Positions 1,238 to 32,821 of a stretch of DNA of 35,425 bases are shown piece by piece. The position numbers and the translations under genes are program-made. The stretch is taken from the NCBI GenBank assembly GCA_003697105.1, contig RFFQ01000033.1, positions 1 to 35,425 on the forward strand. The letters run 5' to 3'. The notes beneath the pieces are model-generated. The model made no database searches. It was not told where the DNA came from and saw only the letters and a list, made by a program, of their open reading frames with translations. Every line of letters begins with the position of its first letter. Within the stretch, counting starts at the first letter, position 1. The stretch comes from Gemmatimonadota bacterium (GTDB lineage Bacteria > 4572-55 > J002).

Positions 1238-1843
1238 ATGACGGATTTCAAAGTCGGAGACCGGATCGAGCATCCTCGATTTGGGCAAGGCACCATTGTC
1301 AAAATTGAAGGAGATACGGAACTGGATGATATCCGGTTGTTGATCGAATTTTCCGATGGCAAAAAGTCTATTGACCCGGCATATGCCCCCATTGAAATCA
1401 TTGGAACCGATGATACGTTTACCTTAAAAGAGACCCTCCGGCAAGTGATCCGGGAGGAATTAAACAGCCTACAGGCAACGGCTACGGCGGGAAGCAGTAT
1501 CGATATTAAAGCCGCCTTCCGCGACATCATCGCCGAGGAATTGGGCATTACCCCTGTAGAACTTGGCGACCGCTGGATCGGGGGTACACTTTATCTGCAG
1601 CCTGGACGAGAGGGACTTAAAGAGAAAGAAATCCCCATTGAAACCTTTTTCCACAAGATTGTGATGGTGCGAGACCGGTTGCGCGTGCTAGAACAACAAA
1701 TTAACTCTCATCCCAAATTGGATGATGAAGATAAAGTCAATTTACAGCAATATATCACCCGCTGTTATGGTTCCCTGACGACCTTTAACGTCTTATTTAA
1801 GGAACGGAGCGATTGGTTTGTCGGGTCAAGCCATCGTGGCTAA
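1238..1843 (+). CDS. hypothetical protein with N-terminal PcrA/UvrD-CTD-like Tudor domain
   Basis: AAGGAG RBS; N-terminus FKVGDRIEHPRFGQGTIVKIEG matches the UvrD/PcrA C-terminal Tudor-like motif; helical C-terminal region of unknown function. Confidence 0.75.
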   Translation: MTDFKVGDRIEHPRFGQGTIVKIEGDTELDDIRLLIEFSDGKKSIDPAYAPIEIIGTDDTFTLKETLRQVIREELNSLQATATAGSSIDIKAAFRDIIAEELGITPVELGDRWIGGTLYLQPGREGLKEKEIPIETFFHKIVMVRDRLRVLEQQINSHPKLDDEDKVNLQQYITRCYGSLTTFNVLFKERSDWFVGSSHRG

Positions 1844-1859
1844 ATCGAATAGGTGCTTC

Positions 1860-2600
1860 ATGAAAATTACCCCCCGAATTTTGATTGTCGAAGATGAACC
1901 CTCGGTAGTGGTTTATCTCAAAAGTTTGTTAAGACGCTGGAATTGTGAGGTGTGTGATGTCGCGTACACCGGTAAAGAAGCGGTCACAAAAGCATTGGAG
2001 CACCAACCGGATGTTATTCTGATGGACATCATGCTGGTAGGAGATACGGATGGAATTGATGTCGCTCAAACCATTGAGTCCCAATTGAACACGCATATCA
2101 TTTTCATTACCGCAATTATCAGTAGTGTCACCAAAAAGATACCCGAAATTAAATCCCGGCCGCTGTTGCACAAACCGATAGACCCGAACCAACTGTTGCA
2201 AGCCCTAGAAAAAGTAACGGCTGCCGGTACGTTTGATGTCACATCTTCGACGAATCACCCCTTGCGGATATTGCTTGTGGAGGACAACCGGGTTACCCTA
2301 AAGATTGTCAGCAGTATGCTCAAGCGTCTCGGTTATGAGATTGTTGGCATGGTCATGAGCGGCGAGGAAGCCATCCAAAAGGCAGAAGCGTTACACCCGG
2401 ATATTATCCTTTCGGATGTGGACTTGATGGGCGACATGACCGGTCTGGAAGCGGCGCAGTACATCCGCACCCACTATCAAATTCCGGTTGTTTTCCTGAC
2501 AGGGCAATTAACAGCTATCGATAACTCTTTTGTGACCCTAAATAAAGCCGCGTTTACCGCCCGCGATATTCAGCAAGCAATTGAAAAAGCGATTGCCTAA
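1860..2600 (+). CDS. response regulator with two tandem receiver domains, no output domain
   Basis: ILIVEDE..PDVILMDI..HKP and ILLVEDN..PDIILSDV..FLTG; ATG 1860 follows AGGTG (preferred over track start 1818). Confidence 0.9.
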   Translation: MKITPRILIVEDEPSVVVYLKSLLRRWNCEVCDVAYTGKEAVTKALEHQPDVILMDIMLVGDTDGIDVAQTIESQLNTHIIFITAIISSVTKKIPEIKSRPLLHKPIDPNQLLQALEKVTAAGTFDVTSSTNHPLRILLVEDNRVTLKIVSSMLKRLGYEIVGMVMSGEEAIQKAEALHPDIILSDVDLMGDMTGLEAAQYIRTHYQIPVVFLTGQLTAIDNSFVTLNKAAFTARDIQQAIEKAIA

Positions 2601-2641: not shown

Positions 2642-2670
2642 TTGACAAGTACGGGCAACCGGTTTATTCA
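2642..2670 (+). promoter_or_regulatory. possible sigma70 promoter for the giant ORF and its leader
   Basis: Perfect TTGACA at 2642-2647; weak -10 (TATTCA) at 17-nt spacing. Confidence 0.35.
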
Positions 2671-2697
2671 TTAGCCATTCGATAGGCTCATTTCACG

Positions 2698-2858
2698 ATA
2701 ACCCAAGTTAAAATTTCGATGCACACGTCGCGACTGTTTCAATCCCAATACAATAATCTATCCCAGCAATAATTGGGATATTGCTGGTGCTGGTTGTTTT
2801 GGGGATATTGATGAAGCAGGGGCGAGATGCAGTGTTTTGGAGATTTAACTTGGGTTAT
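2698..2858 (+). ncRNA. long rod-like hairpin (structured leader or ncRNA) upstream of the glutamate-synthase-like gene
   Basis: Perfect 15-bp IR ATAACCCAAGTTAAA/TTTAACTTGGGTTAT; nested CTGTTTCA/TGAAGCAG and TCGC/GCGA; apical CCAGCAATA/TATTGCTGG; followed by a T-rich tract. Confidence 0.55.
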
Positions 2859-2896
2859 TTTTATTTGCTCCGATAATATCATCAGGAATTTGGCTC

Positions 2897-5800
2897 ATGT
2901 TTACCATTACACCACCTTTTGACGTGCTATGGCAACAATCTGTGCAAAAGCGGGTAGCCACCCAACATAGCGCCGTCGAGTTACTACTAGAGAAATATCA
3001 AGCCCACCTCGAAGCGATGCCCGCTATAGAGGATAATCCTCACTATCGCCGGGTAAAAGCGAAACTCAGCGAGGCTTCGGAGGTGTTCCCCCTGCGCGCC
3101 GTTCAGCAAGCCATTTATTACTCGGATGCCGGAACGGTGGTCGTACCCGATGAGATCAAACATCATTTGGTCAACATCAGTGCGCAATTTGTGGTGCGCC
3201 CGGGTTCGCTGGCGGACTTGCAAGCGTTCGTTCAACTGGCTTATCAGGAGCAAATTCGCTATACCATTCGCGGGTCTGGTACGTGGCCCTTCGGAGGCTC
3301 GATCCCGATGAATAAGGAGGTTGTTCTGGATCTCTCCTACCTGAATTTTCATCACTTGGATCTAGATCGGGCGCAGTTGACCGTTGCGCCGGGAACTGTT
3401 TTTGCCCCCATGCGGCAAATACTCCGCGATCAAGGGTTTGCTTTCCGGCAAGAGATCACCAATCCCCATTCCGGCACTATCTGTGGCTGGATTGCCACCG
3501 GTGGCTTGGGTATTGGTGCGTATAAGTACGGGCATGTGCAAGAGTCCGTCGCGGCAATCCTGTGGCTGACCCCCCAAGGCGAATGGCAAACCTTGACCCC
3601 AGACGATGATCGCTTTGACCTGCTGTTTGATTCTGAAGGGCAAATGGGAATTGTCGCAGGTGCGGTACTGGATGTAAAGCGCTTGAGTTACGTCTCAAAA
3701 CCGTATGCCTTTTCCTTTGATAACGCGGTGGCAGTCCAAACTTTTGTGGAGTTGATCGCTAAGTGGGAATTGCGACCCTCATCAATGATCTACTTTGACA
3801 AACATTACATGAATATCACGTATGCTATTGAATGCGAACACCTTGAACAACATGTGCAAGAGGCCCTCCGTACCGAAGATGACCTGCGTATCCGCCGGGA
3901 TCGCCACCGTAAAGAGGTCATCGAACGCCTGAATGGGCTTGACCATGTGCTGGTGTTGGAATTTGACACCCCAGAAGATTACCAACGCGCGTTGAAATAC
4001 CAGCCGTTCCGCAAGATGGGCGAACAACTGTTTCATGGGGTGTCATTCCGCCGTCTTCCCACAGATGTGGCACACCATATGTGGGAGCATCGCTACGCGC
4101 CGGTGCAGATGAAGCAAAAAGGACCCTCTATGCTGGTTGGAGAGACTATCTTGCCGGTTAAAAACTTCCCCGAATACATGAATTTTGTGGAAGCCGCCAT
4201 CAGCAATTGGACAGGCAATCCGGTAAAAACGGAAGCACACGTTCTTAGCCCGCAGGAAGTTCTCATCCAGACCATCTTGCTTGCCGACATCGATACCCTG
4301 CGGCATAAACTCTACCTCGGTTTGGTACCGTTCATGATCCAAACGTCGATCCAGTTGGGCGGCAAACCGTATGGTACGGGCATCTGGAACCTGCCTTTCC
4401 TCAAAGCCCGGATGAAAACCGGTGATGGGAAGCACATCCAAAAGTTAATCGATACCAAAAATACCCTCGATCCCCAGCACCTGATCAATCAATGCAAATT
4501 TATCAATGAACAGGGGCGCAAACCCGCTTTAAAGCTTTTTCAAAAAATGTCACCTGTCTTGGTCGAAAAAGGTGTTAAATGGCTCTATCAAGGCAAGTTG
4601 AAGGAGGGGAACTCGCTAGGGAAATGGCTTTGGAAGGCAAATAAAGCCCTTTTTCCGCAAATGGTGCCCCCTCAACTTCAGGCAAAGCGTCCGTCGCTAC
4701 TGGAAATCAATTCGGTCTGCGCGGAATGCGATAGCTGTGAGAAAGTCTGCCCCACCAGTGATGTGTTTGGTATGTGGGGGTTAGCGACACCAATTACCCG
4801 CCGCAAAACAGCCAATCGATTGGCTCGCGGTGAGGCGATCACCCCCAGTGAAGCCCTCGGTTTTCTGGTTTGTACCCGGTGCGATAACTGCACCCGCGTC
4901 TGCCCCACGGATATTCCACTAACCCGCATGTTTGACGCTGTTGAAGCGGATACCCATTACCAACTTGCCCTTGCCAAAGGGCTGGGTGCAGACCCCACCG
5001 ATAGCGATGATCTGGCAGAGAAAAAGAACGAATTTATTACTCGCTTTTGGGATATTATGAAGGAAAGCCCGCTCTACTTGCCCCACACTTTAGCGGAACA
5101 AAAAGAGGAAAAATCCCACTTACAACACGGCTTGAACATCATTTATCCCCGCGGGTTCGCCTACGCTGAACTTTTCATCGACCCCGAAACCTGCATCAAA
5201 TGCGGCATGTGTGCGCATGAAAACGCATGTACCTATGGGGCACGCAAAGGCGCCCCGCGTGAAATCCCCCAACTGATCGATCAGAACTGTGCCCTGTGCA
5301 ATGCCTGCATCAATTATTGTCCTCAAAATAAAGCAGTCCATGCGGAACGGGAGTACTTGGATAAGTTGATTAAGAACGCCATCGATTTGGAAGAACGCAA
5401 ATTCTGGCAGACCGAAAAGTCCTTTTTGCGCGATACGACCACCATTCAACGCTCCCCAGAGATCACGCATCAAGCGGATATTTATGTCACGGAAAATATT
5501 ATTATGGAGATCGATAAAGAATCCTCCACCGGACAAATTCCCGTCTCTGGGATGGGGCAAGGCGACCGGCACACGGGTATTGGGTTTGATGCCGAGCGGT
5601 TTTCGCACTTCCACATTGTCGGTCCGGCTCAAAACCGCTTGCATGAGGGCGACCCCGATGAAGAACTCTCCGTAAAATTGGGCAAACGGCATCGCTACTG
5701 CAAATTTGATGCGGACGAAAATCTCCACAATCCCCCGTATCACAAGATCGAACTTCAGACCCCGATGATGTATAACGCCGTGCCGCTGGATAGTAATGGG

Positions 5801-8800
5801 CATGTGGAATTGGCATTCATCAAGGTTGCCGAGCAACACCAAACATTGGTTCATATGACGCTGGATCGCTTTTTGGAGTATTACACCTTTTTCCTGAGTG
5901 AAGGCGGTTACGGCGAATTACCTCCGGTGATTGTCCCGCGTGTGGATGAAGAATTTATCGACCACCTGCAAGTCCAACCGACCGTCACTCGCAAATTACT
6001 GATGGACTTGTGGAAAATGCCAATGTTTGAGATCATCTACCACAAGGAGATGAACCAAACGATTGAGTTTGTCCGTAATTCGGTGCAAGCCCTAAACCGG
6101 GAGATCCCCCTCATCTGCGGCTATCTGGAAGTCTCCGAACATGACATCATCGGGGGGGAGCAAATCATCCCCCATGTGCTAGAAATGTTGGAGGACTTTT
6201 TACGCCTTGAGGTGGACGTGATTCACATCCGGGGTAAACGCAACAAAGACCACTATTTTACCACCTCGCAAGCCGTGCGCGCCATTCACCATTATCTGGT
6301 GGAGAGTGGACGGCGCCATCTGGTGTCACTGATTGCTTCCGGCGGTATCCGGTTGGCATCGGATAGCCAAAAAACGATTCAACGCGGCGCAGAAGCCACC
6401 TTGCTTGATTTCGCGGCTCTCTTGGCACTAGACCCCGATGCCTACAAAGCCATTGTTGAGCATAAAACCACTACCGAACACCTGATCGATCTGGACATTG
6501 AGTGGGCGATAGAACGATTAAACAACCAGATGGAATCCCGAAAAGTGCAAATTTTAGAAGTACTTGGCGCCGCCGGATTCAAGGATTTGAAAAAAACTGT
6601 GGGCGAAGAAGGACGCCTGATCGACTTTTTTCAACTGGAAGAACGTATCCAAAAAGAGATTTTTGAACAGGATGAGAAACTCAGCCAACAGGCAGAATTG
6701 AACCGGCAATTGATGACCACCGAAAGAGTGAATCCGGCAGATGCCTTTCGCTATTCGGAACTGAAACAGAAAGTGCAACCGCTAAAATCTCCGCACTACT
6801 TTTATGAACTCGGTGAGGTCAACCAGACGGTTTATCAACGGGATCACGTGTGGCCCGGCACCTTGATTGAGACCTTAGGACGCATGGCGGCAGGAGACCC
6901 CGCCATGTTTTATCTGAAGCATGTTAAATCTGTCGGCTTGTTAGGAGACGGCTTCGATGTGATGAAAATTCTCTACCAGCGGGACCCAGACACCATCGAT
7001 GAGACCGAACTAGACCGCGTTCAGACGGCGTTACCGCTCGATAAAGGGCTTATCCTCAAACAACCGTGGATGCTCGGCGGCAAATCGGTCGGTTCTATCG
7101 GGTTGGATACGTGGCGTGCGCATGTTATTCTTTCTCGTGAATTGGGCATTCAATACGATACCGGCGAAGGCGGCTACCCGACCTGTTTTTTCCTTAATCG
7201 CAAAGGGGAACCCATCTTTTTCACGGAGCGGGATATCCAACGCATCAAATACTTCTTTAAACATGATACCCATTACACCGTGAAAGAAATCAAGGCAATC
7301 TTACACGAAAATCGGATCACCGAGTCCACGCATCCCCACATTTATGAACAATTGAATGAACACCCAGACCTGAAACCATTCCTCTTTTACGAAGTGATTA
7401 GTACTGAGGATGAGCCGTTTGTCTCAACCGAACTCAAAACCGGTCTGTTTGGCGTGACCAAAGAGACCATCAAAAAAGCAAGACGGGTGGTCATCGCTTA
7501 CAGTCAAGGCGCTAAAATGGGGATTGGGGGACACATTCTAGCCCGGAAGGTCAATAAGTTGGTCTCGTACCTGCGCGGGATTCAAGGCTTGGAAGAACTC
7601 AATACCAGCCGTATCCAGCAATTGATCAAACGGATCGAAAAACTTGAAAAAGATGCCACTCACCCCATGCACGACCTCGCCACATCTGCCATGCCGGAAC
7701 TGATGCGTGCTAATGATGACGGCGAAATTTACCCCGAACTGAAAACATGGCTCTGGCAGATTCAACAGCGGACATACGAACTCCATGAAGCCAAAAAAAT
7801 CGACCCCATCGATTTTGAGTACCTGATTCGCCTCAGTGAGGAGGTCATCAGCTATAGCTACACCAGCGTGATTTCACCGTTTCCGTTCCATAACTGCTAT
7901 TCTATTGAAGATGTCAAAGCATTCATTGACATGGTGCGTATGATCAACCCGCAGGCGGTGATTTCGGTCAAGGTATCGCCTTCGGTGGACATCGAATTCA
8001 TTGCCGCCGGTCTAGCACGTATTGCCAAAGATAACACGGAGGAAGCGGAAAAGGGCATTAAAAATTCAACACCCCTAAATCCTGACTACGGCATGAAGAT
8101 CGAAATTTGGCTGGATGGTCCTCGGGGAGGGACGGGCGCATCGCCTAACATCATTAAGGGGCAGATGGGAATGCATCTGGAGTACGCGATTCCGTTGATC
8201 CATGACCGGTTAGTCCGCGATGGTTTGCGGAATTATGTGAAATTTATGGTCTCTGGGGGGATTCGCACCTATGAGGATGTGATCAAAGCGGTGGCGTTGG
8301 GAGCAGATGGTGTAATTTGGGGCACGGCGCCGCTGGCAGCAATTGGGTGTGATCGCAATCGCAATTGCCATGACGGATGCTCGCGCGGGATTGCCACTAG
8401 CAATTTAATCATGCAGAACCTGCGCAATGTAGATTTGAACTCCAAGCAGATGATCAACGCCTTCGTCATCATGCAAATGCAGGTGATTCGGGCGTTGGCG
8501 GGGCTAGGATTTACCGACATCCGGCAGTTGCGGGGTCGTTTTGATAAAATTCAGTGGTTAGGCTTGAAAGAGCGGGTTGATTTTCGCATTCGGCAGCGCA
8601 AATCGTTTGCTCAACAGATGCAGAGCGCCGGCTACAAAGCGCCGGAACGACAGCCGCACGCAACCGGACAGACCAATTGCGGTGTGGCGGCATTGATCGG
8701 TTCCCATCCGGTACCGAGTTTTATCATGGATGAAGCCCTCAAATCGATGAAAAATCGGGGGATGGATGGTGTCGGTATTGGTAAGACCCTCTGTTTTAAT

Positions 8801-11389
8801 ACCTTCCGAGATCACTATGCCTACCGGGTGATGGTCAAAGGCAAATTGCAATTGGAGGTAGAAGCGGAAGGCAAGAGACCAGATGCTAGAGCGGAACTAC
8901 TCGCGTATCGTTACCAATTAGCGGCAAAGATCAAGCGAATTTTCCTCGATCCGGATTTCGATTTTGCCGGAGATGTGGATGTGACGCAGGTACGGGAATC
9001 TTACAAAAAAGATGATCAGGGTCGAGAACGTGATTACCGCGATTTTGGTAATGAAAACACCGACCCGGGAGATGTTTTCCGCTGGTTCGTGCGAGTCAAG
9101 CCGGAAAAATTAGCCCACTTCATTGAACAGGAGATTTTGCAGCAATCGCGCTATGAATACATCCGTGAATACTTCCCCGAGGTGACCCAAGAGAATTACA
9201 CCGAGCACGCGAAATTTATGCAAAAGGCAGAAGATTTGTTTGTATTCAACCATTCTACGCGATTGACACAGGTGTTATACGTCTGGCAACCGGCGGATCC
9301 GCGAGTTGAAGGCGACCCGAATGATGACGCCGTATTGCATCGACTCAATGAGGTCAGTAAAGCGTACCCTCAAATCACCCATCGAGAGAAGTATGTGCCC
9401 CGGCTACGCAAAATTGCCGCGGTGATGTCCTGTGGTAAAAACTTTGCCGTGTGGAAAACCGCCGGACGTGAGATTCCGTGGGAAACACCGCCTTCACCGA
9501 ATAACATCATCCATGTGCGGCTGGCAACCGGTTCGATTGTGGAGCAGATGAATGCCCACCCATTTGGTAAGCTCCACACCGCTTTGACGCACAACGGGGA
9601 AACCACAAATTATGAAGCGTTAAAGCAACGGGTGGAACAGTTCGGCTTACCGCCACTGGCCACGACCGACACCGAAGTCGCCGCCCTCAAATTCCACTTG
9701 CTGGCGGAAGAGTTGGAATATCCCGATTGGGCACTCTTCGAGAGCTTCTCCCCAACGACCGGTGATGATCTTGCACTCGTTCCACCAGAATTACGTCACC
9801 AACTGGAAGAGGTTCAACGGGTTGAATTTACGTCTTCACCGGATGGACCCTACCAGTATCTGTGTTTACGCCATCACCCAGAATCCAACGTGACCGAACG
9901 CATCGATCTGAAAGACCCGGCCGATTTGCGTCCGAGTACCACCGGTTTTTGGTCGGATGGCAAAAAAACCTTTAGTGCCATTGCCTCGGAAGAACAAGCC
10001 ATCCAAAAAATGATGCAACTGTTGGATCAAGAAGGGCTTATTGACGGTGGTGTACCCGATCAGACGATGGTCAGTAATGGTATGATCAACCGTTTTGCCT
10101 TCAATGAACAAGGGCATATTGCCAATGTTGAATTTGTGGATCGCTATGGGCAGGAGATTCCGTTGGTAGATTACGGACGGCATTACAGCATCCGCCGTAC
10201 CCCGCTGGAAACACCGGTAAATCCCGAGACGTTAAGCGAGCAGATGGAGGCGCATCTACAACATCTGACCGCTTGGATACGGTCACAATTGCCAGAATGG
10301 GATTTTAACACGTACCGGTGGGTCATCGAAAATCTGAAAGACCATCCAAACCTTTCAGATTCAGAGAAAATCGCCACGTTCACCTATTTCATCGATTATC
10401 TGCGAACGATGAACACCGGTGACAAGGCAAAAAGCTCGCTGTTGGATGTGACCCGCACTATCTTTTATCGATTTTTGGATGCCTTGCCACAAGGGGAGGC
10501 GGCGGCGTGGGTTCGTATCACGTACCTCCAACCCGAAGTACCGCCGGTTTCTGGAGATCAGACATTGCTCATCGATGCCACAGGTTTTGAGCCGGAAGGT
10601 ACGAATCCGCGCCAATCTTTGGGCGCATTGTTGGGCATGGCGTATGACCGGGGTTGGCGCAACTTTTTGCTGTACCGCGTGAACGGGCAACGGCTTATTT
10701 CCACCGGCGTGATGGGGAACACCCACACCGATGATGTGGTAATAGATGTGTACGGGACACCGGGCGAATATTTTGGCGCGTTTATGCAAGGAGGACTCGT
10801 CCGGTGCCATGGCAATGCGCAGAACTTCACCGCGATGACCATGCATCATGGTACTTTACAGATTTTCGGCAATGCGGGCAAAGTGTGTGGTTATGCCTCT
10901 AAGGGAGGTACCGTCTTTATTTTAGGGGATGTCGTTGATCGGGTATGGACGAATTCGGTCAATGACCCCCGCTGCGATGACCTCAACGTTCATGTGTTGG
11001 GGAGTGCCAGTAAATATGCGGGGGAATCACTGATGGGAGGTGATTTCTTCTTCGGAGGGATGTATTTTGATCATACCGGAGCATTACGGGTGCAAGACCG
11101 CCCGTATCGAGGCACAAAATTGTTTGGTGGCGCCTCACGGGGAAATTTCCTCTTTTTTGACCCCTATGACCGGCTCGATCCGGCGCAGTACACGCATGGC
11201 AACATCAGCCCTATAGATGACCAAAGCTGGATTAAATGGACAAAAAGGATTACCGCAACGCTCACTCTAGCAGGCGTACCTCTTGTGGAAGGACGGTTTC
11301 AAGCAGATAACCGGTGGTTTGACCTCGACCCAAGCCATTTTAAGTTGATAGTCCCTCGCGGAGGGCTGAAAGGTTACGAATCGCACTGA
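2897..11389 (+). CDS. giant fusion: FAD-linked oxidoreductase + 4Fe-4S domains + glutamate synthase FMN domains + class II glutamine amidotransferase + GXGXG domain
   Basis: FAD_binding_4 motifs (IRGSGT..GG, GTICGWIATGG, SEGQMGIV); four ferredoxin-type Cys motifs; GltB FMN motifs (DTGEGG, QGAKMGIGGH, SPFPFHNCYSIED, GGTGASP, SGGIRT, CDRNRNCHDGC); GATase-II motifs (CGV, NRG, HVRLAT, NAHPF, HNGE, TDTE); GXGXG repeats; AGGA RBS. Confidence 0.92.
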   Translation: MFTITPPFDVLWQQSVQKRVATQHSAVELLLEKYQAHLEAMPAIEDNPHYRRVKAKLSEASEVFPLRAVQQAIYYSDAGTVVVPDEIKHHLVNISAQFVVRPGSLADLQAFVQLAYQEQIRYTIRGSGTWPFGGSIPMNKEVVLDLSYLNFHHLDLDRAQLTVAPGTVFAPMRQILRDQGFAFRQEITNPHSGTICGWIATGGLGIGAYKYGHVQESVAAILWLTPQGEWQTLTPDDDRFDLLFDSEGQMGIVAGAVLDVKRLSYVSKPYAFSFDNAVAVQTFVELIAKWELRPSSMIYFDKHYMNITYAIECEHLEQHVQEALRTEDDLRIRRDRHRKEVIERLNGLDHVLVLEFDTPEDYQRALKYQPFRKMGEQLFHGVSFRRLPTDVAHHMWEHRYAPVQMKQKGPSMLVGETILPVKNFPEYMNFVEAAISNWTGNPVKTEAHVLSPQEVLIQTILLADIDTLRHKLYLGLVPFMIQTSIQLGGKPYGTGIWNLPFLKARMKTGDGKHIQKLIDTKNTLDPQHLINQCKFINEQGRKPALKLFQKMSPVLVEKGVKWLYQGKLKEGNSLGKWLWKANKALFPQMVPPQLQAKRPSLLEINSVCAECDSCEKVCPTSDVFGMWGLATPITRRKTANRLARGEAITPSEALGFLVCTRCDNCTRVCPTDIPLTRMFDAVEADTHYQLALAKGLGADPTDSDDLAEKKNEFITRFWDIMKESPLYLPHTLAEQKEEKSHLQHGLNIIYPRGFAYAELFIDPETCIKCGMCAHENACTYGARKGAPREIPQLIDQNCALCNACINYCPQNKAVHAEREYLDKLIKNAIDLEERKFWQTEKSFLRDTTTIQRSPEITHQADIYVTENIIMEIDKESSTGQIPVSGMGQGDRHTGIGFDAERFSHFHIVGPAQNRLHEGDPDEELSVKLGKRHRYCKFDADENLHNPPYHKIELQTPMMYNAVPLDSNGHVELAFIKVAEQHQTLVHMTLDRFLEYYTFFLSEGGYGELPPVIVPRVDEEFIDHLQVQPTVTRKLLMDLWKMPMFEIIYHKEMNQTIEFVRNSVQALNREIPLICGYLEVSEHDIIGGEQIIPHVLEMLEDFLRLEVDVIHIRGKRNKDHYFTTSQAVRAIHHYLVESGRRHLVSLIASGGIRLASDSQKTIQRGAEATLLDFAALLALDPDAYKAIVEHKTTTEHLIDLDIEWAIERLNNQMESRKVQILEVLGAAGFKDLKKTVGEEGRLIDFFQLEERIQKEIFEQDEKLSQQAELNRQLMTTERVNPADAFRYSELKQKVQPLKSPHYFYELGEVNQTVYQRDHVWPGTLIETLGRMAAGDPAMFYLKHVKSVGLLGDGFDVMKILYQRDPDTIDETELDRVQTALPLDKGLILKQPWMLGGKSVGSIGLDTWRAHVILSRELGIQYDTGEGGYPTCFFLNRKGEPIFFTERDIQRIKYFFKHDTHYTVKEIKAILHENRITESTHPHIYEQLNEHPDLKPFLFYEVISTEDEPFVSTELKTGLFGVTKETIKKARRVVIAYSQGAKMGIGGHILARKVNKLVSYLRGIQGLEELNTSRIQQLIKRIEKLEKDATHPMHDLATSAMPELMRANDDGEIYPELKTWLWQIQQRTYELHEAKKIDPIDFEYLIRLSEEVISYSYTSVISPFPFHNCYSIEDVKAFIDMVRMINPQAVISVKVSPSVDIEFIAAGLARIAKDNTEEAEKGIKNSTPLNPDYGMKIEIWLDGPRGGTGASPNIIKGQMGMHLEYAIPLIHDRLVRDGLRNYVKFMVSGGIRTYEDVIKAVALGADGVIWGTAPLAAIGCDRNRNCHDGCSRGIATSNLIMQNLRNVDLNSKQMINAFVIMQMQVIRALAGLGFTDIRQLRGRFDKIQWLGLKERVDFRIRQRKSFAQQMQSAGYKAPERQPHATGQTNCGVAALIGSHPVPSFIMDEALKSMKNRGMDGVGIGKTLCFNTFRDHYAYRVMVKGKLQLEVEAEGKRPDARAELLAYRYQLAAKIKRIFLDPDFDFAGDVDVTQVRESYKKDDQGRERDYRDFGNENTDPGDVFRWFVRVKPEKLAHFIEQEILQQSRYEYIREYFPEVTQENYTEHAKFMQKAEDLFVFNHSTRLTQVLYVWQPADPRVEGDPNDDAVLHRLNEVSKAYPQITHREKYVPRLRKIAAVMSCGKNFAVWKTAGREIPWETPPSPNNIIHVRLATGSIVEQMNAHPFGKLHTALTHNGETTNYEALKQRVEQFGLPPLATTDTEVAALKFHLLAEELEYPDWALFESFSPTTGDDLALVPPELRHQLEEVQRVEFTSSPDGPYQYLCLRHHPESNVTERIDLKDPADLRPSTTGFWSDGKKTFSAIASEEQAIQKMMQLLDQEGLIDGGVPDQTMVSNGMINRFAFNEQGHIANVEFVDRYGQEIPLVDYGRHYSIRRTPLETPVNPETLSEQMEAHLQHLTAWIRSQLPEWDFNTYRWVIENLKDHPNLSDSEKIATFTYFIDYLRTMNTGDKAKSSLLDVTRTIFYRFLDALPQGEAAAWVRITYLQPEVPPVSGDQTLLIDATGFEPEGTNPRQSLGALLGMAYDRGWRNFLLYRVNGQRLISTGVMGNTHTDDVVIDVYGTPGEYFGAFMQGGLVRCHGNAQNFTAMTMHHGTLQIFGNAGKVCGYASKGGTVFILGDVVDRVWTNSVNDPRCDDLNVHVLGSASKYAGESLMGGDFFFGGMYFDHTGALRVQDRPYRGTKLFGGASRGNFLFFDPYDRLDPAQYTHGNISPIDDQSWIKWTKRITATLTLAGVPLVEGRFQADNRWFDLDPSHFKLIVPRGGLKGYESH

Positions 11390-11409
11390 CCGGAGTACCA
11401 TGAGCTACG

Positions 11410-11449
11410 AAAAACGCCCGAAAATTTTATCAATTTCGGGCGTTCTTTA
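11410..11449. terminator. bidirectional intrinsic terminator
   Basis: AACGCCCGAAA/TTTCGGGCGTT stem flanked by A and T tracts between convergent genes. Confidence 0.8.
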
Positions 11450-11471
11450 TGGGTTCTGGTGAGTACAGTTG

Positions 11472-12059
11472 CTACCGGTAATACGGATTTAATCCTAAAT
11501 CATGTTCCGTCACATCGTAAATTTCACCTAAATCGGGGACGTTTTGGCGTAGGAGGGTCTCGATCCCTTGTCGCAGGGTAGCGGCTGCCATACCACAGCC
11601 TTGACAGCCACCGCCCATCTCCAAATAGAGGTCGTTGTCCTTGAGGTCGATGAGTGCCACCCAGCCGCCGTGCATCGCAATCGCCGGGTTGATGTGAGAA
11701 TCGATAATCTGCTGGATTCGTTCCGCCATAGGGTTATCTGCCAGATGTTCTGGCAATGTACTACTGTTCATCCCACTTTTATCAATTTTAAAGCCGCTCC
11801 CCATGCTGGTTTCCAGATAATCGATTTTGATATTTTCCACATAGGGTAGGCTTTGCGGATCGACATAGACATCAAATTCTTCAAAATTGACGGTGGTATC
11901 GGTAGGAGCAATTTCATCTTCAGCCACCAACGCTAAACCAAATTCGGCTTGTTGCATATTGATGGGTTTGGTGGTAATGCGAATCCCGGTGATGTTCTCT
12001 TCGGTCTCATCCATCAGTTGTAAAATTTTCGTTTTGGCATTGCTGGTAATGGTTATCAT
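11472..12059 (-). CDS. nfuA: Fe-S biogenesis protein NfuA (degenerate A-type carrier domain + NifU-C domain)
   Basis: N-terminal ITITSNA..GIRI..IDY..GFKI HesB-like domain lacking Cys; C-terminal INPAIAMHGG..GGGCQGC..TLRQGIE..DVTEH; GAGGTG RBS. Confidence 0.9.
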   Translation of the reverse strand: MITITSNAKTKILQLMDETEENITGIRITTKPINMQQAEFGLALVAEDEIAPTDTTVNFEEFDVYVDPQSLPYVENIKIDYLETSMGSGFKIDKSGMNSSTLPEHLADNPMAERIQQIIDSHINPAIAMHGGWVALIDLKDNDLYLEMGGGCQGCGMAAATLRQGIETLLRQNVPDLGEIYDVTEHDLGLNPYYR

Positions 12060-12229: not shown

Positions 12230-12328
12230 CACGGTTGTGTGTGTGTGTTTTTGCGTGATTCCCGCATTCAGATGTTTTCTTATTTGAAAACAACTTATCA
12301 TCTTATTAATTTTAAGGAGGAGGAAATT

Positions 12329-14422
12329 ATGATGGTGTCACGAACGTTTGGATTTTCACTGGTAATTTTAGCTTTCGTGGTGATGTGTGTTGCGCCGGTT
12401 GTCACCGCAGAATCGCTATTTGTGGTCAAAAATGCGGCAGGCGATACGGTTTTTGTCGTTACCGAAGAAGGGATTGTGGTGCGCGGTCGGGATGACAGCG
12501 GGAACATGGTCAATTTGATGACCATTTCCCCGGACAGTATGGTGTTTGAGTTGCCCGATGCCGTGACTCGTCCGGGCGGTGGCGGGGGTTACCAATTTCG
12601 CGGTCGTGGTGGGGGCGGCCGGACAGATGCGGTCAATTTACTGACCTTGACCTCCGATAGTGTTGTATTTGACCTGCCCGGTGCGGCAATTCGTCCGGGC
12701 GGTGGCGGGGGTTACCAATTTCGCGGTCGTGGTGGGGGCGGCCGGGAGGATGTTTCTAACTTCCTGACCCTAACCCCAGACAGCATCGTGTTTGAGTTAG
12801 CAAATACGGCCATTCGTCCGGCGGGCGGTGGCGGTTACCAATTTCGCGGTCGAGGCGGTGGCGGTCGTGTCGCGGAACCAGCTTGGTTGCACATCACTCC
12901 GGATAGCATGGTCTTTGACCTGCCCGGGACGGCGGGCCGTCCGGCAGGAAATGGGGGCGGGTATCAGTTTCGAGGTCGCGGGGGCGGTGGTGGCGGTCGC
13001 ACCGGCGAACTCAATTTGATGACCCTCTCTACGGATCCAGACTTTAGCGGTTCAATTGATGAGGAACGGATGCTCTGGTATCCGGTTAAAAATGCGTTTT
13101 TGGTGGGACGGGTGCTGGTAGAACATCCAGATAGTGTGGGTTCTAATTCTCTGGCGGCAGGATACCAAAACAAAGCGATGGGTGATTTTTCACAAGCAAT
13201 GGGGTATCAAAATATTGCCCGCGGACGTGGGGCTTCTGTATTTGGTTACCAGTCCCAAGCCAACGGTGAAAATTCCTTTGCCTTTGGTAATCAATCTATT
13301 GCCAATGGAGATAATTCCTTTGCCTTCGGTTCAGAAACCCGGTCAACACAGGAAAATACATTTTCCATTGGTAAAGAAGCATGGGCACTGGGCACCAATG
13401 CCTTTGCAATAGGTTTGATCTCTACCGCGAATGACTCCAACTCGATTGCCATTGGTACACGAGCGTTCTCCTACGGTGAAAATGCGTTAGCTTTAGGAAC
13501 AAACACCACGACTACTGAATCTAATGCCATTGCCATGGGTCATAGTAGTTTCGCGTGGGGCAGTGGGAGCGTCGCCATCGGGGATCAACCGGCGGCCTCG
13601 GGTATCAACTCCATCAGTATAGGCACTCAAGCGGTTTCGGCTAGTGACGGTACCGTGGCATTGGGTCAACAGGCATCCGCCGAGGGGCAGTATGCGATTG
13701 CCTTTGGCTATGGTGATTCTGCCAGCGGCTATTTTAGCTCCGCGATAGGTTACAGAAATAAAACGCTGGGATATGGGAGTGCTGCCTTCGGCTATCAGAC
13801 AACATCAACCGGTGACTACAGTATCGCTATGGGCAATAATGCAACGGCGGCGTCCTATTCCTCATTTGTGACCGGACGCTATAATGAGATCACCGGCAAT
13901 ACGTATTTTTGGGAGGACACTGACCCGCTCTTTGTGGTGGGAAACGGTTTCGATGCGAATAACCGCAGTAATGCCCTGACCTTGCTAAAAAATGGGGAAC
14001 TCATCGTGGCGGGCACGGTGAATGGTTCTTCCGATGCACGGTTAAAGACGAATATCACGCCATTGCGTAATGTCCTCAGTAAACTGGCTCAGATCAATCC
14101 GGTCTATTTTGAATTTAAGAACCAGCAGACACACCCGGCAGGGACACATATCGGATTTTTAGCGCAAGAAGTGCAACAGGTCTTCCCAGAGCTGGTCAGC
14201 GAGGATGCTTCCGGTTATCTAGCTGTCGCGTATGGCAATATGACGGCGGTATTGCTCCAAGCACTCAAGGAACAACAACAAGAGATTGACCGGATTCGCA
14301 GCGAAAATGACCAACTGCGTGCAAAAGTGGATCAATTGGAATCGTTGGAAAAACGGGTGAGGGAGCTGGAAGCCTTGTGGATACCGCACCAACCAGATGT
14401 TACGACTCGCGCCGCACGATAA
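12329..14422 (+). CDS. secreted trimeric fibre/adhesin: Gly/Arg repeats, YadA-head-like repeats, C-terminal peptidase S74 intramolecular chaperone
   Basis: AAGGAGGAGG RBS before ATG 12329; signal peptide; many 14-aa (S/A)xAxG repeats; SSDARLKTNI...HIGFLAQEV..VFPELV..VAYGNM..ALKE plus coiled coil. Confidence 0.88.
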   Translation: MMVSRTFGFSLVILAFVVMCVAPVVTAESLFVVKNAAGDTVFVVTEEGIVVRGRDDSGNMVNLMTISPDSMVFELPDAVTRPGGGGGYQFRGRGGGGRTDAVNLLTLTSDSVVFDLPGAAIRPGGGGGYQFRGRGGGGREDVSNFLTLTPDSIVFELANTAIRPAGGGGYQFRGRGGGGRVAEPAWLHITPDSMVFDLPGTAGRPAGNGGGYQFRGRGGGGGGRTGELNLMTLSTDPDFSGSIDEERMLWYPVKNAFLVGRVLVEHPDSVGSNSLAAGYQNKAMGDFSQAMGYQNIARGRGASVFGYQSQANGENSFAFGNQSIANGDNSFAFGSETRSTQENTFSIGKEAWALGTNAFAIGLISTANDSNSIAIGTRAFSYGENALALGTNTTTTESNAIAMGHSSFAWGSGSVAIGDQPAASGINSISIGTQAVSASDGTVALGQQASAEGQYAIAFGYGDSASGYFSSAIGYRNKTLGYGSAAFGYQTTSTGDYSIAMGNNATAASYSSFVTGRYNEITGNTYFWEDTDPLFVVGNGFDANNRSNALTLLKNGELIVAGTVNGSSDARLKTNITPLRNVLSKLAQINPVYFEFKNQQTHPAGTHIGFLAQEVQQVFPELVSEDASGYLAVAYGNMTAVLLQALKEQQQEIDRIRSENDQLRAKVDQLESLEKRVRELEALWIPHQPDVTTRAAR
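12515..13025 (+). repeat. four tandem 123-nt (41-aa) intragenic repeats
   Basis: RP codons at 12569, 12692, 12815, 12938; 12568-12622 is identical to 12691-12745. Confidence 0.92.
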
Positions 14423-14623: not shown

Positions 14624-15709
14624 ATGAAACGCGGTTTATGTTTTTTAACCCCGATGGCACTTCTGATGCTGTTTTTAACCCCCATTTGGGCCACGGTGAC
14701 GATTCGTGGTGAATTAACGACGATCGAACTCCACAACGGTGGTCAGATTGATGTGTACGGCGATTGGGAAAACGAAGGTATGTTTTCCCCCAACGGTAAT
14801 CGCGTGACGTTTACCGGAAACGGTGATGCCCAAATTATCAATACGGACGGAGAGACATTCGACCAACTGGTGGTGAATATCACTGGGGGTGACCTGATCT
14901 TAACCCACAATGTAACAGTAAACAACGTCTTGCAGATCGATCAAGGGAATGTTCGAGCGGAAACTAGCACACTCTCCCTCAGCGAAGGGGCACAATTGGT
15001 TGAAAATGGCGGTTCGTTATTGGGCAGTGTAACGACCACCCAGACGGTTGGCACCAATGCGGGAGATTTCACTCATTTGGGGGTCTCTATCAGTTCCGGT
15101 GCGGATGATTTGGGCACGGTGCGGGTCACCCGGTTCAATGGACCCGGTGGCGCTATTTCAAGCGGTGATTACACGGGGATCAACCGGTCGTGGCAAATTT
15201 TATCCGATAATCCGCCGGCTGCTGGGCGAGATGTGACCTTTAGCTGGTCATCCGCCGTTGATAATGGTAAAGATATGACTCAAGCACAGATTTGGCAAAG
15301 TACAACCCATGGGCGGTTGTGGGATGAAGCCTCTACCGTAACGAATGTGTCCGGCAATGACCCGCGTACCCTTACCGCCCCCAACCGCACCGATTTTGGG
15401 TTGTTTACCATCAGTGATGCCGCTAATCCGCTCAAAGTATGGCATGATTTTAATCAGGATGGCAACATTGATGTCTATGATGTGCAGGCGATTGCCCAGT
15501 ATCTCGGAACGACACTAGACCGGTACGACCTAAATGGGGATACCGTTGTGAATGCAGTGGATGTGGAATTGGTGTTAGAACAATGGCGCCAGTTACAACC
15601 GGAACGTGCCCGCGAACGTGCGTTATCCGGTGTGCCGGCACAAAAAGCGGCTTCCTCACCAACGCGAACGGGGCCTAAGCAAGCTGTGCCATCGCCAGTA
15701 CAACCATAA
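14624..15709 (+). CDS. secreted beta-rich protein with C-terminal dockerin-like (paired EF-hand) domain
   Basis: GGGAGG RBS; signal peptide; DFNQDGNIDVYDV and DLNGDTVVNAVDV duplicated Ca-binding loops. Confidence 0.8.
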   Translation: MKRGLCFLTPMALLMLFLTPIWATVTIRGELTTIELHNGGQIDVYGDWENEGMFSPNGNRVTFTGNGDAQIINTDGETFDQLVVNITGGDLILTHNVTVNNVLQIDQGNVRAETSTLSLSEGAQLVENGGSLLGSVTTTQTVGTNAGDFTHLGVSISSGADDLGTVRVTRFNGPGGAISSGDYTGINRSWQILSDNPPAAGRDVTFSWSSAVDNGKDMTQAQIWQSTTHGRLWDEASTVTNVSGNDPRTLTAPNRTDFGLFTISDAANPLKVWHDFNQDGNIDVYDVQAIAQYLGTTLDRYDLNGDTVVNAVDVELVLEQWRQLQPERARERALSGVPAQKAASSPTRTGPKQAVPSPVQP

Positions 15710-15768: not shown

Positions 15769-15812
15769 TATGTTCCTGTGATGATTCTACTTGAATTGAA
15801 TGAGAAATATTG

Positions 15813-21435: not shown

Positions 21436-22299
21436 ATGAGGGTCTTACCGATGAACGTAACAGGATTCACGGGTGTGATGATGGCGATTGTGTGGGTCTG
21501 GCTGGCCATACTCCCGGCAGAGGCTCAAAATGCGGATACCTTAACTACCAATTTGGTCATCACTTCTAACATCAAACATGCGGCAATTTATATCAATGGG
21601 GATTCCACAGGTAAGCATACCCCCACCATATTTAAAAACCTACCGGAAGGGAAATATACCATCGAATTGGTCGAAAAATATGGTAAGAAATTGGAAAAAG
21701 TGATCCAAATCTATGCCGGTCAAGATAATGAAGTCCAACTCGATTTTTATGTAGGGCAATTTACGATTGATTCCAATTTGCCGCTGGACTCGATAGTCGT
21801 GAATGGGAATCGGGTCGAAGCGGTGGTTCCCGTCACATTTGATCATATGCCCGCGGGTGATTACTCCGTGCAGGTATATGAGTCCTATGGAAATAGCCTC
21901 AGCCAGAAATTTTTCCTTTCCCCCGGTGATTCCCTGTTTTTGCCCCTCAATTTTAGTCTGGGAGATTTAGAAGTTAAATCGAATCTCAAACATGCCGCCG
22001 TCTGGCTCAATGGTAAATTGACCGGTCAAACGGTACCGGCATTATTAACCGATTTAGCCGAAGGAATTTACGATGTGATGGTGGTTTCTGCCGATGGAAA
22101 GTATAAAATCGGGCAGACTATCAAGCTGAAACAGGGCAGTAACACCTTGAATTTAGCCTTTGAACAGAAAAATAAATGGCACTATTATCTATATGGGGCG
22201 GTAGCGGCAGGAGTAGGCGGGACGGTTTACCTGTTGACGCGTAAAGAGCAAGCCCCGGAAAAAGAAGGCATTCCCAATCCGCCGGATTTTCCCCGTTGA
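21436..22299 (+). CDS. PEGA-domain protein with C-terminal hydrophobic helix
   Basis: Three PEGA-like repeats (ITSN..AAIYING..G.TP..L.EG.Y); signal peptide; starts 1 nt after the upstream stop. Confidence 0.85.
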   Translation: MRVLPMNVTGFTGVMMAIVWVWLAILPAEAQNADTLTTNLVITSNIKHAAIYINGDSTGKHTPTIFKNLPEGKYTIELVEKYGKKLEKVIQIYAGQDNEVQLDFYVGQFTIDSNLPLDSIVVNGNRVEAVVPVTFDHMPAGDYSVQVYESYGNSLSQKFFLSPGDSLFLPLNFSLGDLEVKSNLKHAAVWLNGKLTGQTVPALLTDLAEGIYDVMVVSADGKYKIGQTIKLKQGSNTLNLAFEQKNKWHYYLYGAVAAGVGGTVYLLTRKEQAPEKEGIPNPPDFPR

Positions 22300-25723: not shown

Positions 25724-26494
25724 GTGATTATGATCCGGGCACAAGGTCTAACTAAAATTTATTCGGATAAAGAGCGTGGTGAATTTAAAGCCGCCGAAAA
25801 TATATCGTTTGAGTGTGAACCGGGCAGTGTGTTCGGGTTGTTGGGTCCCAACGGTGCGGGTAAAACCACCACCCTACGGATGCTGGCTACGTTGATTAAA
25901 CCAACACGCGGTACAGCAACCATCAACGGGTTTGATATTGTGAAAGAAGCCCGAAAAGTTCGGGAAAACATCGGTTTTATGACCGGCGAAACCGCCATTT
26001 ATGACCGGTTGACGGCACGAGAGATGATCCGTTACTTTGGACAATTATTTGGTCTGGAAAAAGAGAAACTCGACCAGCGGATAGAGGCCATTTTAGACCT
26101 GCTTGATATGCGTCATTTTGCCGATAAACGAAATGATAAGCTGTCAACCGGCATGAGACAAAAAGTTTCGATTGCCCGCACGATTGTGCACGATCCGCCC
26201 TGCCTGATTTTAGATGAACCCACTACCGGTTTGGATGTGTTGACTTCCAAAACCATTGTGGATTTTATTCATCAGGCGCGGGAAATGGGCAAAAGTGTGC
26301 TTTTCTCCACGCACATCATGAGCGAAGCGGAACGGCTTTGTGACCAGATTGCCATCATCCACAACGGGCATATCTTGGCGATTGGCTCCATTGAGGAGTT
26401 AAAAACAAAAGCGCAGGCTCACACCTTAGAGGATATGTTTATCAACATGGTCAATCAAACGGAAATTGACGGCACGGATGAGGCTCACCATTGA
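25724..26494 (+). CDS. ABC transporter ATP-binding protein, NatA (Na+ efflux)-like
   Basis: Walker [10 protein letters not shown], signature LSTGMRQK, Walker B LILDEPT, H-loop [12 protein letters not shown]. Confidence 0.9.
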
Positions 26495-32617: not shown

Positions 32618-32821
32618 AAATTCCCCCAGCATTAGGAGTGAAAAGTGAACGGGTTTTATACAGATAAAATTACGCTGTAATATTCTTGAGAATATCTGCA
32701 AAATTCTTCCACACATACCGGAAAGTCAGGATCGGTTTTTACAAGAGTACCCGTATAACCCACAAATCCGGTAGGTGTTTCGCTGAGTATTAGAGCAGCT
32801 CCTTTATGAGGTTGAATATAG

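Follow-up and report, generated by a model that had tools for sequence, protein, structure and literature searches.

A 2,830-residue glutamate synthase-like fusion protein with a predicted FAD and iron-sulfur electron-input module of its own

Introduction

A 35,425-nucleotide (nt) contig from a Gemmatimonadota metagenome-assembled genome (MAG; contig RFFQ01000033.1, assembly GCA_003697105.1; hereafter the window) carries on its forward strand a single gene of 2,830 codons, whose predicted product resembles a glutamate synthase (GOGAT) preceded by a flavin adenine dinucleotide (FAD) dehydrogenase and iron-sulfur domains of its own. As far as the account in PMC3448663 goes, those glutamate synthases that have been characterised draw on NADH, on NADPH or on ferredoxin in its reduced state, and forms that depend on F420 are no more than predictions. 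The locus raises the question of what this megaenzyme makes, how electrons would reach its active site and how such a chain came about. The reading we favour, at a probability of roughly 60%, is that the gene encodes a complete glutamate synthase whose core belongs to the split 'archaeal-type' lineage, and to which an electron-input module of its own has been joined in the order of the operon.

Domain organisation of the megaenzyme

Pfam was run on the full protein and on six overlapping pieces of it. Seven parts follow one another: an LctD/GlcD-like FAD dehydrogenase, two 2x[4Fe-4S] domains, a degenerate triosephosphate isomerase (TIM) barrel, a flavin mononucleotide (FMN) barrel, an N-terminal nucleophile (Ntn) glutaminase and a GXGXG beta-helix. 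Their positions in the window are as follows.

2897-11389, forward strand: whole gene (P0001), encoding the 2,830-residue fused glutamate-synthase-like megaenzyme; a single stop-free open reading frame (ORF) of 2,830 codons
3185-4498, forward strand: VAO/PCMH-type FAD dehydrogenase module (FAD_binding_4, residues 97-233, and cap/FAD-oxidase_C, residues 274-534)
4715-4915, forward strand: first 2x[4Fe-4S] domain, of the GlcF/SdhB/GlpC type (Fer4_8/Fer4_17), residues 607-673
5174-5338, forward strand: second 2x[4Fe-4S] ferredoxin domain, residues 760-814
5471-6628, forward strand: highly conserved lead-in (residues 859-1000) and first, degenerate TIM barrel (to about residue 1244), with a partial PF01645 match
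7085-8578, forward strand: FMN-binding glutamate-synthase barrel (PF01645; Pfam Glu_synthase 3.3e-60 over nt 7085-8512)
8348-8380, forward strand: cluster motif C1818-X5-C1824-X3-C1828, aligned with the [3Fe-4S] Cys triad of canonical GltS
8678-8680, forward strand: codon of Cys1928, by alignment the Ntn nucleophile, with predicted self-cleavage between TGQTN and CGVAAL
8678-10216, forward strand: class-II (Ntn) glutamine amidotransferase domain (GATase_6 match at residues 2204-2264)
10514-11386, forward strand: GXGXG beta-helix domain, FwdC-like (GXGXG at residues 2610-2715)

A Shine-Dalgarno-like AGGA lies about 10 nt 5' of the ATG. Within the FAD module, FAD_binding_4 (PF01565) was matched at E = 1.8e-24, and FAD-oxidase_C gave a weak match (2e-4) on a protein piece. 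The first di-cluster domain holds two CX2CX2CX3CP motifs (Cys 608/611/614/618 and 659/662/665/669; nt 4718-4906). The second (Cys 766/769/772/778 and 798/801/804/808; nt 5192-5323) corresponds to the N-terminal domain of the 'Fer4-barrel-FMN' subunit of the split type described below. The initial annotation had proposed this domain order in one stop-free frame, and Pfam bears out every element and coordinate of it, including the Cys-Gly-Val at nt 8678. Its description of a permuted, self-contained glutamate-synthase-like megaenzyme with its own FAD oxidoreductase and Fe-S wire is likewise supported, the permutation being relative to canonical GltB.

Authenticity and distribution of the family

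The initial annotation had also called for a chimeric assembly to be excluded. A Logan contig of 9,413 nt from run X1 spans window positions 2658-11800 unbroken with 2 substitutions and 0 indels, and five contigs from run X2 tile the megagene with 0 indels; the two runs, both hot-spring metagenomes, belong to a single study and are possibly the source sample, so that their agreement is that of a second assembler only. Firmer evidence against an artefact comes from the protein search, which returned 260 relatives of at least 1,556 residues. Among the 119 matches listed besides the query, 71 clusters are 2,786-2,992 residues long, span 96-100% of the query and are 54-67% identical to it; another 35 clusters, of 2,503-2,565 residues at 40-45% identity, make up a short form, and 13 are cut off at contig ends. 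Both groups share the architecture, the short form lacking some loops such as that at residues 1566-1656, which is a lineage-specific insert in the FMN barrel. Across 26 full-length homologues the mean column identity is 57%, with hundreds of invariant residues; Cys1928 is one of these, as are the 16 Cys of ferredoxin type and the three Cys of the cluster motif in the FMN domain. The possibility that the gene is an assembly chimera or a pseudogene, which its MAG source and its great length might suggest, is therefore practically negligible, given the Logan contig, the conservation and the number of carrier species.

A scan of one genome per species found relatives in 126 species genomes, all of them MAGs, and 70 loci were retrieved. 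By record title the carriers belong to Calditrichota, KSB1, Krumholzibacteriia, Zhuqueibacterota, Vulcanimicrobiota, Brocadiia and Syntrophaceae/Thermodesulfobacteriota; these taxon names are MAG record titles, some evidently loose. Databases name the relatives just 'FAD-binding protein' or 'glutamate synthase-related protein'. No RNA run was listed among those that carry the gene. In a FastTree phylogeny of the FMN domain the window protein nests in a Calditrichota-dominated clade with 98% support. The GTDB phylum of the window comprises three species here, and with this query nothing was matched at 1e-20 in the genomes of the other two, which are 93% and 99% complete. This absence and the clade position together hint at lateral acquisition, with MAG names being unreliable.

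The synthase core

A profile of the region from Fer4 to FMN, built from 9 fused and 10 split sequences, was compared with the PDB and matched ferredoxin-dependent glutamate synthase (Fd-GltS; 1llw, 4.9e-75) and GltB (1ea0, 2.4e-74). Fd-GltS Q969, K972 and R992 align with the invariant Q1537, K1540 and R1560; K972 and R992 are presumably the Lys/Arg pair that binds 2-oxoglutarate. The position of Fd-GltS Q978 is taken by an invariant His (H1546). The cluster residues C1818, C1824 and C1828 are invariant too and align with the CX5CX4C motif of Fd-GltS.

The first barrel gave a partial second Glu_synthase (PF01645) match (residues 1125-1227, 1.4e-8), and its stretch ASGGIRLASDSQKTIQRGAEA plainly repeats the VSGGIRTYEDVIKAVALGADG of the true FMN barrel. 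It keeps the SGGIR motif and lacks the DG..GGTGA element of the true FMN barrel, so that the label 'degenerate barrel' given to it in the initial annotation is a fair one. At window positions 6300-6420 (residues about 1140-1170) it has an invariant A-S-G-G-I-R...K-T-I..G-A, which duplicates the FMN-phosphate-binding stretch of the FMN barrel. An AlphaFold2 model of residues 740-1925 was obtained with a mean predicted local distance difference test score (pLDDT) of 81 and a predicted template modelling score of 0.79. Residues 120-1152 of this model superpose as one unit on residues 448-1182 of Azospirillum brasilense GltB (Z 27.4, root-mean-square deviation (rmsd) 4.2 Å, 626 residues), which we take to be approximately the central and FMN domains. 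Taken alone, the first barrel resembles FMN-dependent TIM barrels (DHODH, Z 19.7; HAO1, 19.2; IMPDH, 19.0). By its position, the first barrel corresponds to the central domain of GltB; in sequence, PF04898 gives a weak signal.

The C-terminal parts are more diverged. A profile of glutaminase plus GXGXG, built from 10 fused and 10 split sequences, reached the GlmS glutaminase domain (1xff, 1.6e-7) and FwdC (5t5i_C, 2.2e-9) in the PDB and did not reach GltB. GlmS Cys1, Arg26, Arg73, Asn98-Gly99 and Asp123, which we take to be the catalytic Cys nucleophile, an Arg, the Asn-Gly oxyanion hole and an Asp, align with C1928, R1954, R2208, N2233-G2234 and D2258, and these are invariant in all 20 sequences.

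Ntn amidotransferases act through the free amino group of an N-terminal Cys. In the megaenzyme this nucleophile is internal. Because 1,927 residues precede it, self-cleavage before Cys1928 is predicted, which would give chains of about 218 and 100 kDa. The two residues before the nucleophile are [ST][ND] in 42 of the 44 fused proteins of at least 2,400 residues, within the motif x-G/A-Q-S/T-N in the long form and P-P-S-D in the short form. Separate glutaminase-GXGXG genes of the split type never start with Met-Cys: all 56 have a conserved E-G-G ahead of the Cys, and the closest codon that could serve as a start lies 4-36 codons 5' of it. Since the split glutaminases also carry a leader before the Cys, leader removal would be a trait of the whole lineage, and in the fused enzyme the 'leader' would be the entire reductase-synthase part.

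Taken together, a core that functions as a glutamate synthase (glutamine + 2-oxoglutarate + 2 e- -> 2 glutamate) is very likely.

The FAD and iron-sulfur input module

The profile and residue counts for the FAD module come from 21 sequences (12 fused, 9 split) that are about 25% identical. Its full-length matches were LctD of the Acetobacterium woodii Ldh-EtfAB complex (7qh2_C, 1.6e-50), mouse LDHD (3e-44), alkyl-dihydroxyacetone phosphate synthase (3.5e-41) and glycolate oxidase/D-lactate dehydrogenase (3.6e-39). An AlphaFold model of residues 1-700 (pLDDT 85.7) shares its fold with LctD (7qh2), mouse LDHD (8jd*) and human D2HGDH (6lpn) over 430-441 residues at an rmsd of 2.7-3.0 Å and Z 25.5-26.3. 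Mouse LDHD (8jde) scored highest (Z 26.3, rmsd 2.8 Å, 431 residues), followed by LctD (Z 25.8) and D2HGDH (Z 25.5), and cytokinin oxidases, AGPS and vanillyl-alcohol oxidases were slightly lower (Z 22.6-24.0). By modelled fold and by profile, the module groups with the D-2-hydroxyacid dehydrogenases.

The NCBIfam GlcD model scored 58 bits (cut-off 568) and the YdiJ model 38 bits (cut-off 1,350), and the ESM Atlas returned only generic FAD_binding_4 + Fer4 clusters, which carry no functional name. The GlcF/SdhB/GlpC-type di-cluster domain after the FAD module is of the Fer4_8/17 type that GlcF and YdiJ also have, but the CCG domains of those two proteins are lacking here. Invariant in all 21 FAD modules are W396, R399, E416, Y492, G495, W497, K521 and eight Cys. 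The FAD pocket is thus strongly constrained, which argues for a role, and the module is probably the electron entry point. That the donor is a small organic acid is a more tentative proposal, a little short of an even chance.

Split operons and the origin of the fusion

A search for shorter relatives gave mostly fragments and proteins of 820-990 residues with Fer4, Glu_syn_central and Glu_synthase domains. Using one of the proteins (P0219) as the single query, we fetched 80 metagenome loci of the split type (L082-L161), a biased sample, and scanned them with domain hidden Markov models cut from the fused alignment. Where the modules are separate genes, the operon order equals the fusion order: a protein of about 620 residues with the FAD dehydrogenase and the first FeS domain (A), Fer4 + barrel + FMN in one or two genes (B), and a protein of about 880 residues with glutaminase + GXGXG (C). 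The split and fused forms share modules, order, the FAD signature W-R-E ... P-Y-G-x-G-x-W and the leader before the glutaminase Cys; the split forms differ in being separate genes with 25-30% identity to the fused ones, in a fourth Cys in the FMN-domain cluster and in an additional insert, rich in Cys, that separates the barrels.

Of the 77 split loci that have a core gene, 15 carry the FAD gene immediately upstream of the core genes. In 29 of the 77, MvhD-like (PF02662), MetV-like (PF12225) and MetF-like (PF02219) genes take that place, 14 have something else upstream and 19 too little upstream sequence. The MvhD-MetV-MetF-like set looks like a second, likewise undescribed, electron-input module of the same core. 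Because other split loci hold this set in the same position, we conclude that the input position is a slot in which flavoprotein modules were swapped in evolution; the FrhB-type input proposed for methanogens offers a published precedent. The MvhD-like (FlpD), MetV-like (DUF5981) and MetF-like (MTHFR) genes are on the same strand as the Fer4-barrel-FMN gene in L083-L133 and other loci (for example L087:4203-4874, L099:2308-3252 and L102:640-1074), often with amt, P-II, glnA and carAB nearby.

Selenocysteine or read-through was considered for the single in-frame stop that many split loci have in the B gene and rejected: the 25 cases checked comprise 13 TAA, 8 TAG and 4 TGA, with a start one codon on. 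The stops within the split Fer4-barrel-FMN genes are ordinary gene boundaries.

The glutaminase-GXGXG profile was also run against 1.84 billion representatives and gave 282 clusters at E <=1e-30. P0256 (3,152 residues) has a different order: glutaminase-GXGXG, FAD dehydrogenase, FMN barrel. In this protein the Cys is residue 79, after ..TEGG, FAD_binding_4/FAD-oxidase_C spans residues 1315-1733 and the Glu_synthase barrel residues 2545-2867. P0247 and P0344 are further A-B-C fusions, and P0320 and P0338 are core fusions without the FAD module. The W-R-E...P-Y-G signature is present in the FAD modules of P0256, P0247 and P0344 as well. The FAD-FeS module therefore occurs in three settings: as a separate upstream gene (the 15 split loci), in A-B-C fusions (44 ORFs of at least 2,400 residues) and in the C-A-B fusion P0256.

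The FastTree phylogeny of the FMN domain has 111 rows, is unrooted and carries Shimodaira-Hasegawa (SH)-like support only; some of its 'splitNoFAD' labels mark loci without upstream sequence. A branch with 100% SH-like support divides 42 fused forms (35 long, 7 short) from 69 split forms. On these comparisons the architecture is an operon fusion, and the A-B-C forms sampled probably descend from a single fusion event. The initial annotation had suggested that split-type modules were re-fused in a new order. This did not hold, since the split operons have the same modules in the same order and a different order exists in P0256. It is the whole lineage that is permuted relative to canonical GltB.

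Gene context and genome inventory

Of the eight short-form loci (L074-L081), seven have glnA as the next gene upstream, on the same strand; the eighth (L077) is broken. A gene for a 95-residue ABM protein, carA and carB lie downstream (carA/carB in six of eight), and a glnD-type uridylyltransferase gene lies further upstream. In three long-form loci (L038, L040 and L056) a histidine kinase gene and the gene of an NtrC-like regulator of the sigma54 type come directly downstream; no other conserved neighbours of the long form were found among the fetched loci. The split loci also hold amt, P-II, glnA, GS-III, carA and carB. Gene context says nitrogen assimilation. A search of the window for the sigma54 promoter TGGCAC-N5-TTGCW with at most 2 mismatches gave 13 matches against 17.9 expected, none of them in 2600-2896.

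The window genome (96.85% complete) encodes one glutamine synthetase and three ELFV glutamate dehydrogenases. The statement in the initial annotation that the window has no gltD holds and extends to the genome, where none of the 20 candidates scored matched GltD (Fer4_20, PF14691), the genome being incomplete and absence from it not proof. Outside the megagene this genome has no strong Glu_synthase match and no GXGXG match. Five further carrier genomes were inventoried for GOGAT genes. In one of them, a complete chromosome of 4.7 Mb (G004), GltD and any other GOGAT are absent as well, and another genome (G005) has an extra 553-residue Glu_synthase protein. The megaenzyme is thus the sole GOGAT candidate in some genomes and a second one in others.

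Proposed mechanism and alternative explanations

In the mechanism that we propose, the VAO/PCMH-type FAD domain would take two electrons from a small, probably carboxylate-bearing donor and not from NAD(P)H via GltD. The four [4Fe-4S] clusters and the [3Fe-4S]-type cluster, for which the motifs are in place, would relay them to the FMN of the second barrel. The Ntn glutaminase, whose catalytic residues are present and which would be freed by cleavage before Cys1928, would release ammonia from glutamine. At the FMN site this ammonia would add to 2-oxoglutarate, held by K1540 and R1560, and the imine would be reduced to glutamate; the binding residues are conserved and the chemistry is modelled on that of canonical GltS. 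The first barrel and the GXGXG helix would act as structural or tunnel-forming domains, as in GltB. That the synthase is driven in this way by a small organic molecule, which would take the place of NAD(P)H, ferredoxin or F420 as donor, is a possibility to which we give slightly less than even odds.

Several observations weigh against this reading. In LctD, as reported in PMC9232219, His377, His384 and Glu422 are the metal ligands, the catalytic base is His423, and the carboxylate is bound by Arg328. The equivalents given for mouse LDHD in PMC10589216 are His398, His405, Glu442, His443 and Arg347, and alanine mutants are inactive. The aligned positions in the window protein are H448, V455, P491, Y492 and R399. 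The carboxylate-binding Arg (R399) is common to all and kept in 21 of 21 sequences, and the first metal His (H448) in 15 of 21. The other three are replaced throughout: position 455 is never His (Val/Ala and similar instead), position 491 is never Glu (Pro in the window protein) and position 492, that of the catalytic His, is Tyr in all 21. Aligned in this way, the module cannot work by the mechanism of a classical metal-dependent D-2-hydroxyacid dehydrogenase, and classical D-2-hydroxyacid oxidation by it is doubtful. Because three of the four metal-site and base residues are gone, the donor cannot be named. The initial annotation had seen here a substrate-oxidising flavoenzyme that draws on an organic donor; the dehydrogenase fold and profile agree with this, the loss of most metal-site and base residues speaks against it, and as a whole it is unproven. 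Beyond the FAD module, no conserved donor-related transporter or pathway gene was found beside the megagene in the loci. A third inventoried genome (G003, a complete 6.3-Mb chromosome) also encodes a canonical GltB (1,538-residue frame, 506 bits) beside GltD. With 31.8 bits, the GXGXG domain stays just short of the Pfam cut-off of 32.5 when the full protein is scanned, and it passes, with 35.9 bits, only in a scan of the C-terminal piece alone. Finally, without cleavage the glutaminase domain should be inactive, its Cys being internal.

The loss of the metal triad and catalytic His would also fit a glutamate synthase fed at its Fe-S domains or its FAD by reduced ferredoxin, an Etf or another redox protein, in which the LctD-like module serves for docking or as a one-/two-electron converter and no longer oxidises a small substrate. 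Such an arrangement would agree with split relatives that have no FAD gene and still keep the N-terminal 2x[4Fe-4S] domain, with hosts that are anaerobes or sediment and hot-spring lineages, and with the nearest solved relative, LctD, which PMC9232219 describes in complex with EtfAB and exchanging electrons from flavin to flavin. We nevertheless consider it unlikely. R399, E416 and the active-site Tyr and Trp are invariant in 21 of 21 modules at about 25% identity, which would be unexpected for a mere docking domain, the entire cap domain is kept in a confidently modelled fold, and no conserved etf or ferredoxin gene adjoins the megagene in the loci. The self-contained architecture, with no gene for an external redox partner, could instead point to a redox-neutral, 'hydrogen-borrowing' amination, in which the FAD site oxidises D-2-hydroxyglutarate or another 2-hydroxyacid and the same two electrons, passed along the internal Fe-S wire, serve at the FMN to reduce the resulting 2-oxoacid as it is aminated with ammonia from glutamine (net 2-hydroxyglutarate + glutamine -> 2 glutamate, without an external redox carrier). 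In its favour, human D2HGDH (Z 25.5) shares in the tie for the best structural match, and one of the weak N-terminal NCBIfam matches is to YdiJ, a D-2-hydroxyglutarate dehydrogenase that likewise fuses FAD and FeS parts. This scheme is very improbable: the YdiJ score is far below its cut-off (38 of 1,350 bits), and the FAD module lacks the metal site used by D2HGDH, which we take, partly from abstracts, to be a Zn/His/His/Glu site. In addition, the MetF/MetV/MvhD replacement sets cannot make 2-oxoglutarate, which argues that the slot supplies electrons only.

A different doubt concerns the core, which might be another amine- or ammonia-transferring FMN enzyme, either N-methylglutamate-synthase-like or acting on another 2-oxoacid. 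The glutaminase and GXGXG profile is too diverged to match canonical GltB, H1546 replaces Fd-GltS Q978 and the GltB equivalog model gives 114 bits against a cut-off of 1,047. These points are outweighed by the invariance of all the glutamine-binding residues of Ntn amidotransferases and of the 2-oxoglutarate Lys/Arg equivalents, by the company of glnA, carAB, amt, P-II and glnD, and by two genomes in which the megaenzyme is the only GOGAT candidate, and we regard the chance of a non-GOGAT core as slim. A glutamate synthase with its own electron-input module remains the reading that we prefer.

Relationship to known systems

The megaenzyme shares with GltB/GltD (1ea0, 6s6s, 7mfm) and Fd-GltS (1llw, 1ofd) the FMN barrel with the 2-oxoglutarate Lys/Arg and three-Cys motif, a central-domain-like barrel before it, the Ntn glutaminase, the GXGXG beta-helix and a nitrogen-assimilation context. 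It differs in order (central-FMN-glutaminase-GXGXG, whereas canonical GltB is glutaminase-central-FMN-GXGXG), in having no GltD, in its built-in N-terminal FAD dehydrogenase and four [4Fe-4S] clusters, in the internal glutaminase Cys, and in glutaminase and GXGXG parts too diverged for their profile to match GltB in the PDB. The NCBIfam GltB equivalog model NF008730 gave 113.6 bits, below its cut-off of 1,047. Judged by its residues and domain order, the protein qualifies neither as a canonical GltB nor as a D-2-hydroxyacid dehydrogenase of the classical kind.

For methanogens, a presumed glutamate synthase that depends on F420 (FGltS) with an FrhB-type input module has been proposed, going by what PMC3448663, PMC3087415 and PMC9012536 say of it; according to PMC3087415 its function is predicted from gene context alone and 'remains to be proven'. 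By description, the split 'archaeal-type' GltS/FGltS resembles the present family in its separate FMN, glutaminase and GXGXG modules and a dedicated flavin/Fe-S input protein. The input of the megaenzyme, however, is a VAO/PCMH-type (LctD/GlcD-like) FAD protein and not an FrhB-type F420H2 dehydrogenase, and everything is in one chain. N-methylglutamate synthase MgsABC has three subunits, one glutaminase-like, one GXGXG and one FMN, encoded in methylamine-utilisation clusters and is set apart by context alone, which here is glnA, carAB, amt and P-II. HdrL of Desulfobacterium, called a 'heterodisulfide reductase/glutamate synthase fusion' in PMC2702500, appears from that description to be a different, GltD-type fusion. 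In agreement with the initial annotation, which names no characterised enzyme with this architecture, no description of it was found in the literature searched (which covered few subscription journals), in the PDB or above any NCBIfam cut-off. New here are the long form, the split operons in fusion order and their alternative input set, a second order of fusion, the leader that split subunits carry and the loss of the metal site from the FAD module.

If the proposal is true, it adds a further class of glutamate synthase, with a VAO-type flavoprotein and its own Fe-S relay as the reductase. The family is common in lineages of which little is known, namely Calditrichota, KSB1, Krumholzibacteriia, Zhuqueibacterota, Vulcanimicrobiota and Syntrophaceae-type Thermodesulfobacteriota, and as the sole glutamate synthase candidate in at least two genomes it turns how these hosts pay for nitrogen assimilation into a testable question. 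A single chain would carry two flavins and about 19 iron atoms, which makes it attractive for structural studies of how ammonia is channelled and how electrons travel over long range. As an instance of Ntn autoprocessing, the release of a nucleophile from behind 1,927 residues would be extreme. The series of modular forms, with separate genes, two fusion orders and a MetF/MetV/MvhD-type input, illustrates enzyme evolution by operon fusion and the swapping of input modules.

Neighbouring genes in the window

Upstream of the megagene, a response-regulator gene (receiver domain, 260 residues; 1818-2600, forward strand) stops 296 nt before it. Downstream and convergent, a gene for an NfuA-like Fe-S cluster carrier (Fe-S_biosyn + NifU; 11472-12059, reverse strand) lies 83 nt past the megagene stop. 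Neither neighbour is common to the other loci. A gene for a NAD-dependent D-isomer-specific 2-hydroxyacid dehydrogenase (26491-27504, forward strand) is 15 kb away and shows no linkage to the megagene in other loci. Large surface-protein genes occupy much of the reverse strand (12239-14422, 14624-15709, 15810-21434, 21436-22299 and 27965-32716). They encode a YadA-head repeat protein with a Peptidase_S74 chaperone (727 residues), a dockerin protein, a 1,874-residue FG-GAP/ASPIC protein, a PEGA protein and a 1,583-residue protein with 14 PKD domains.

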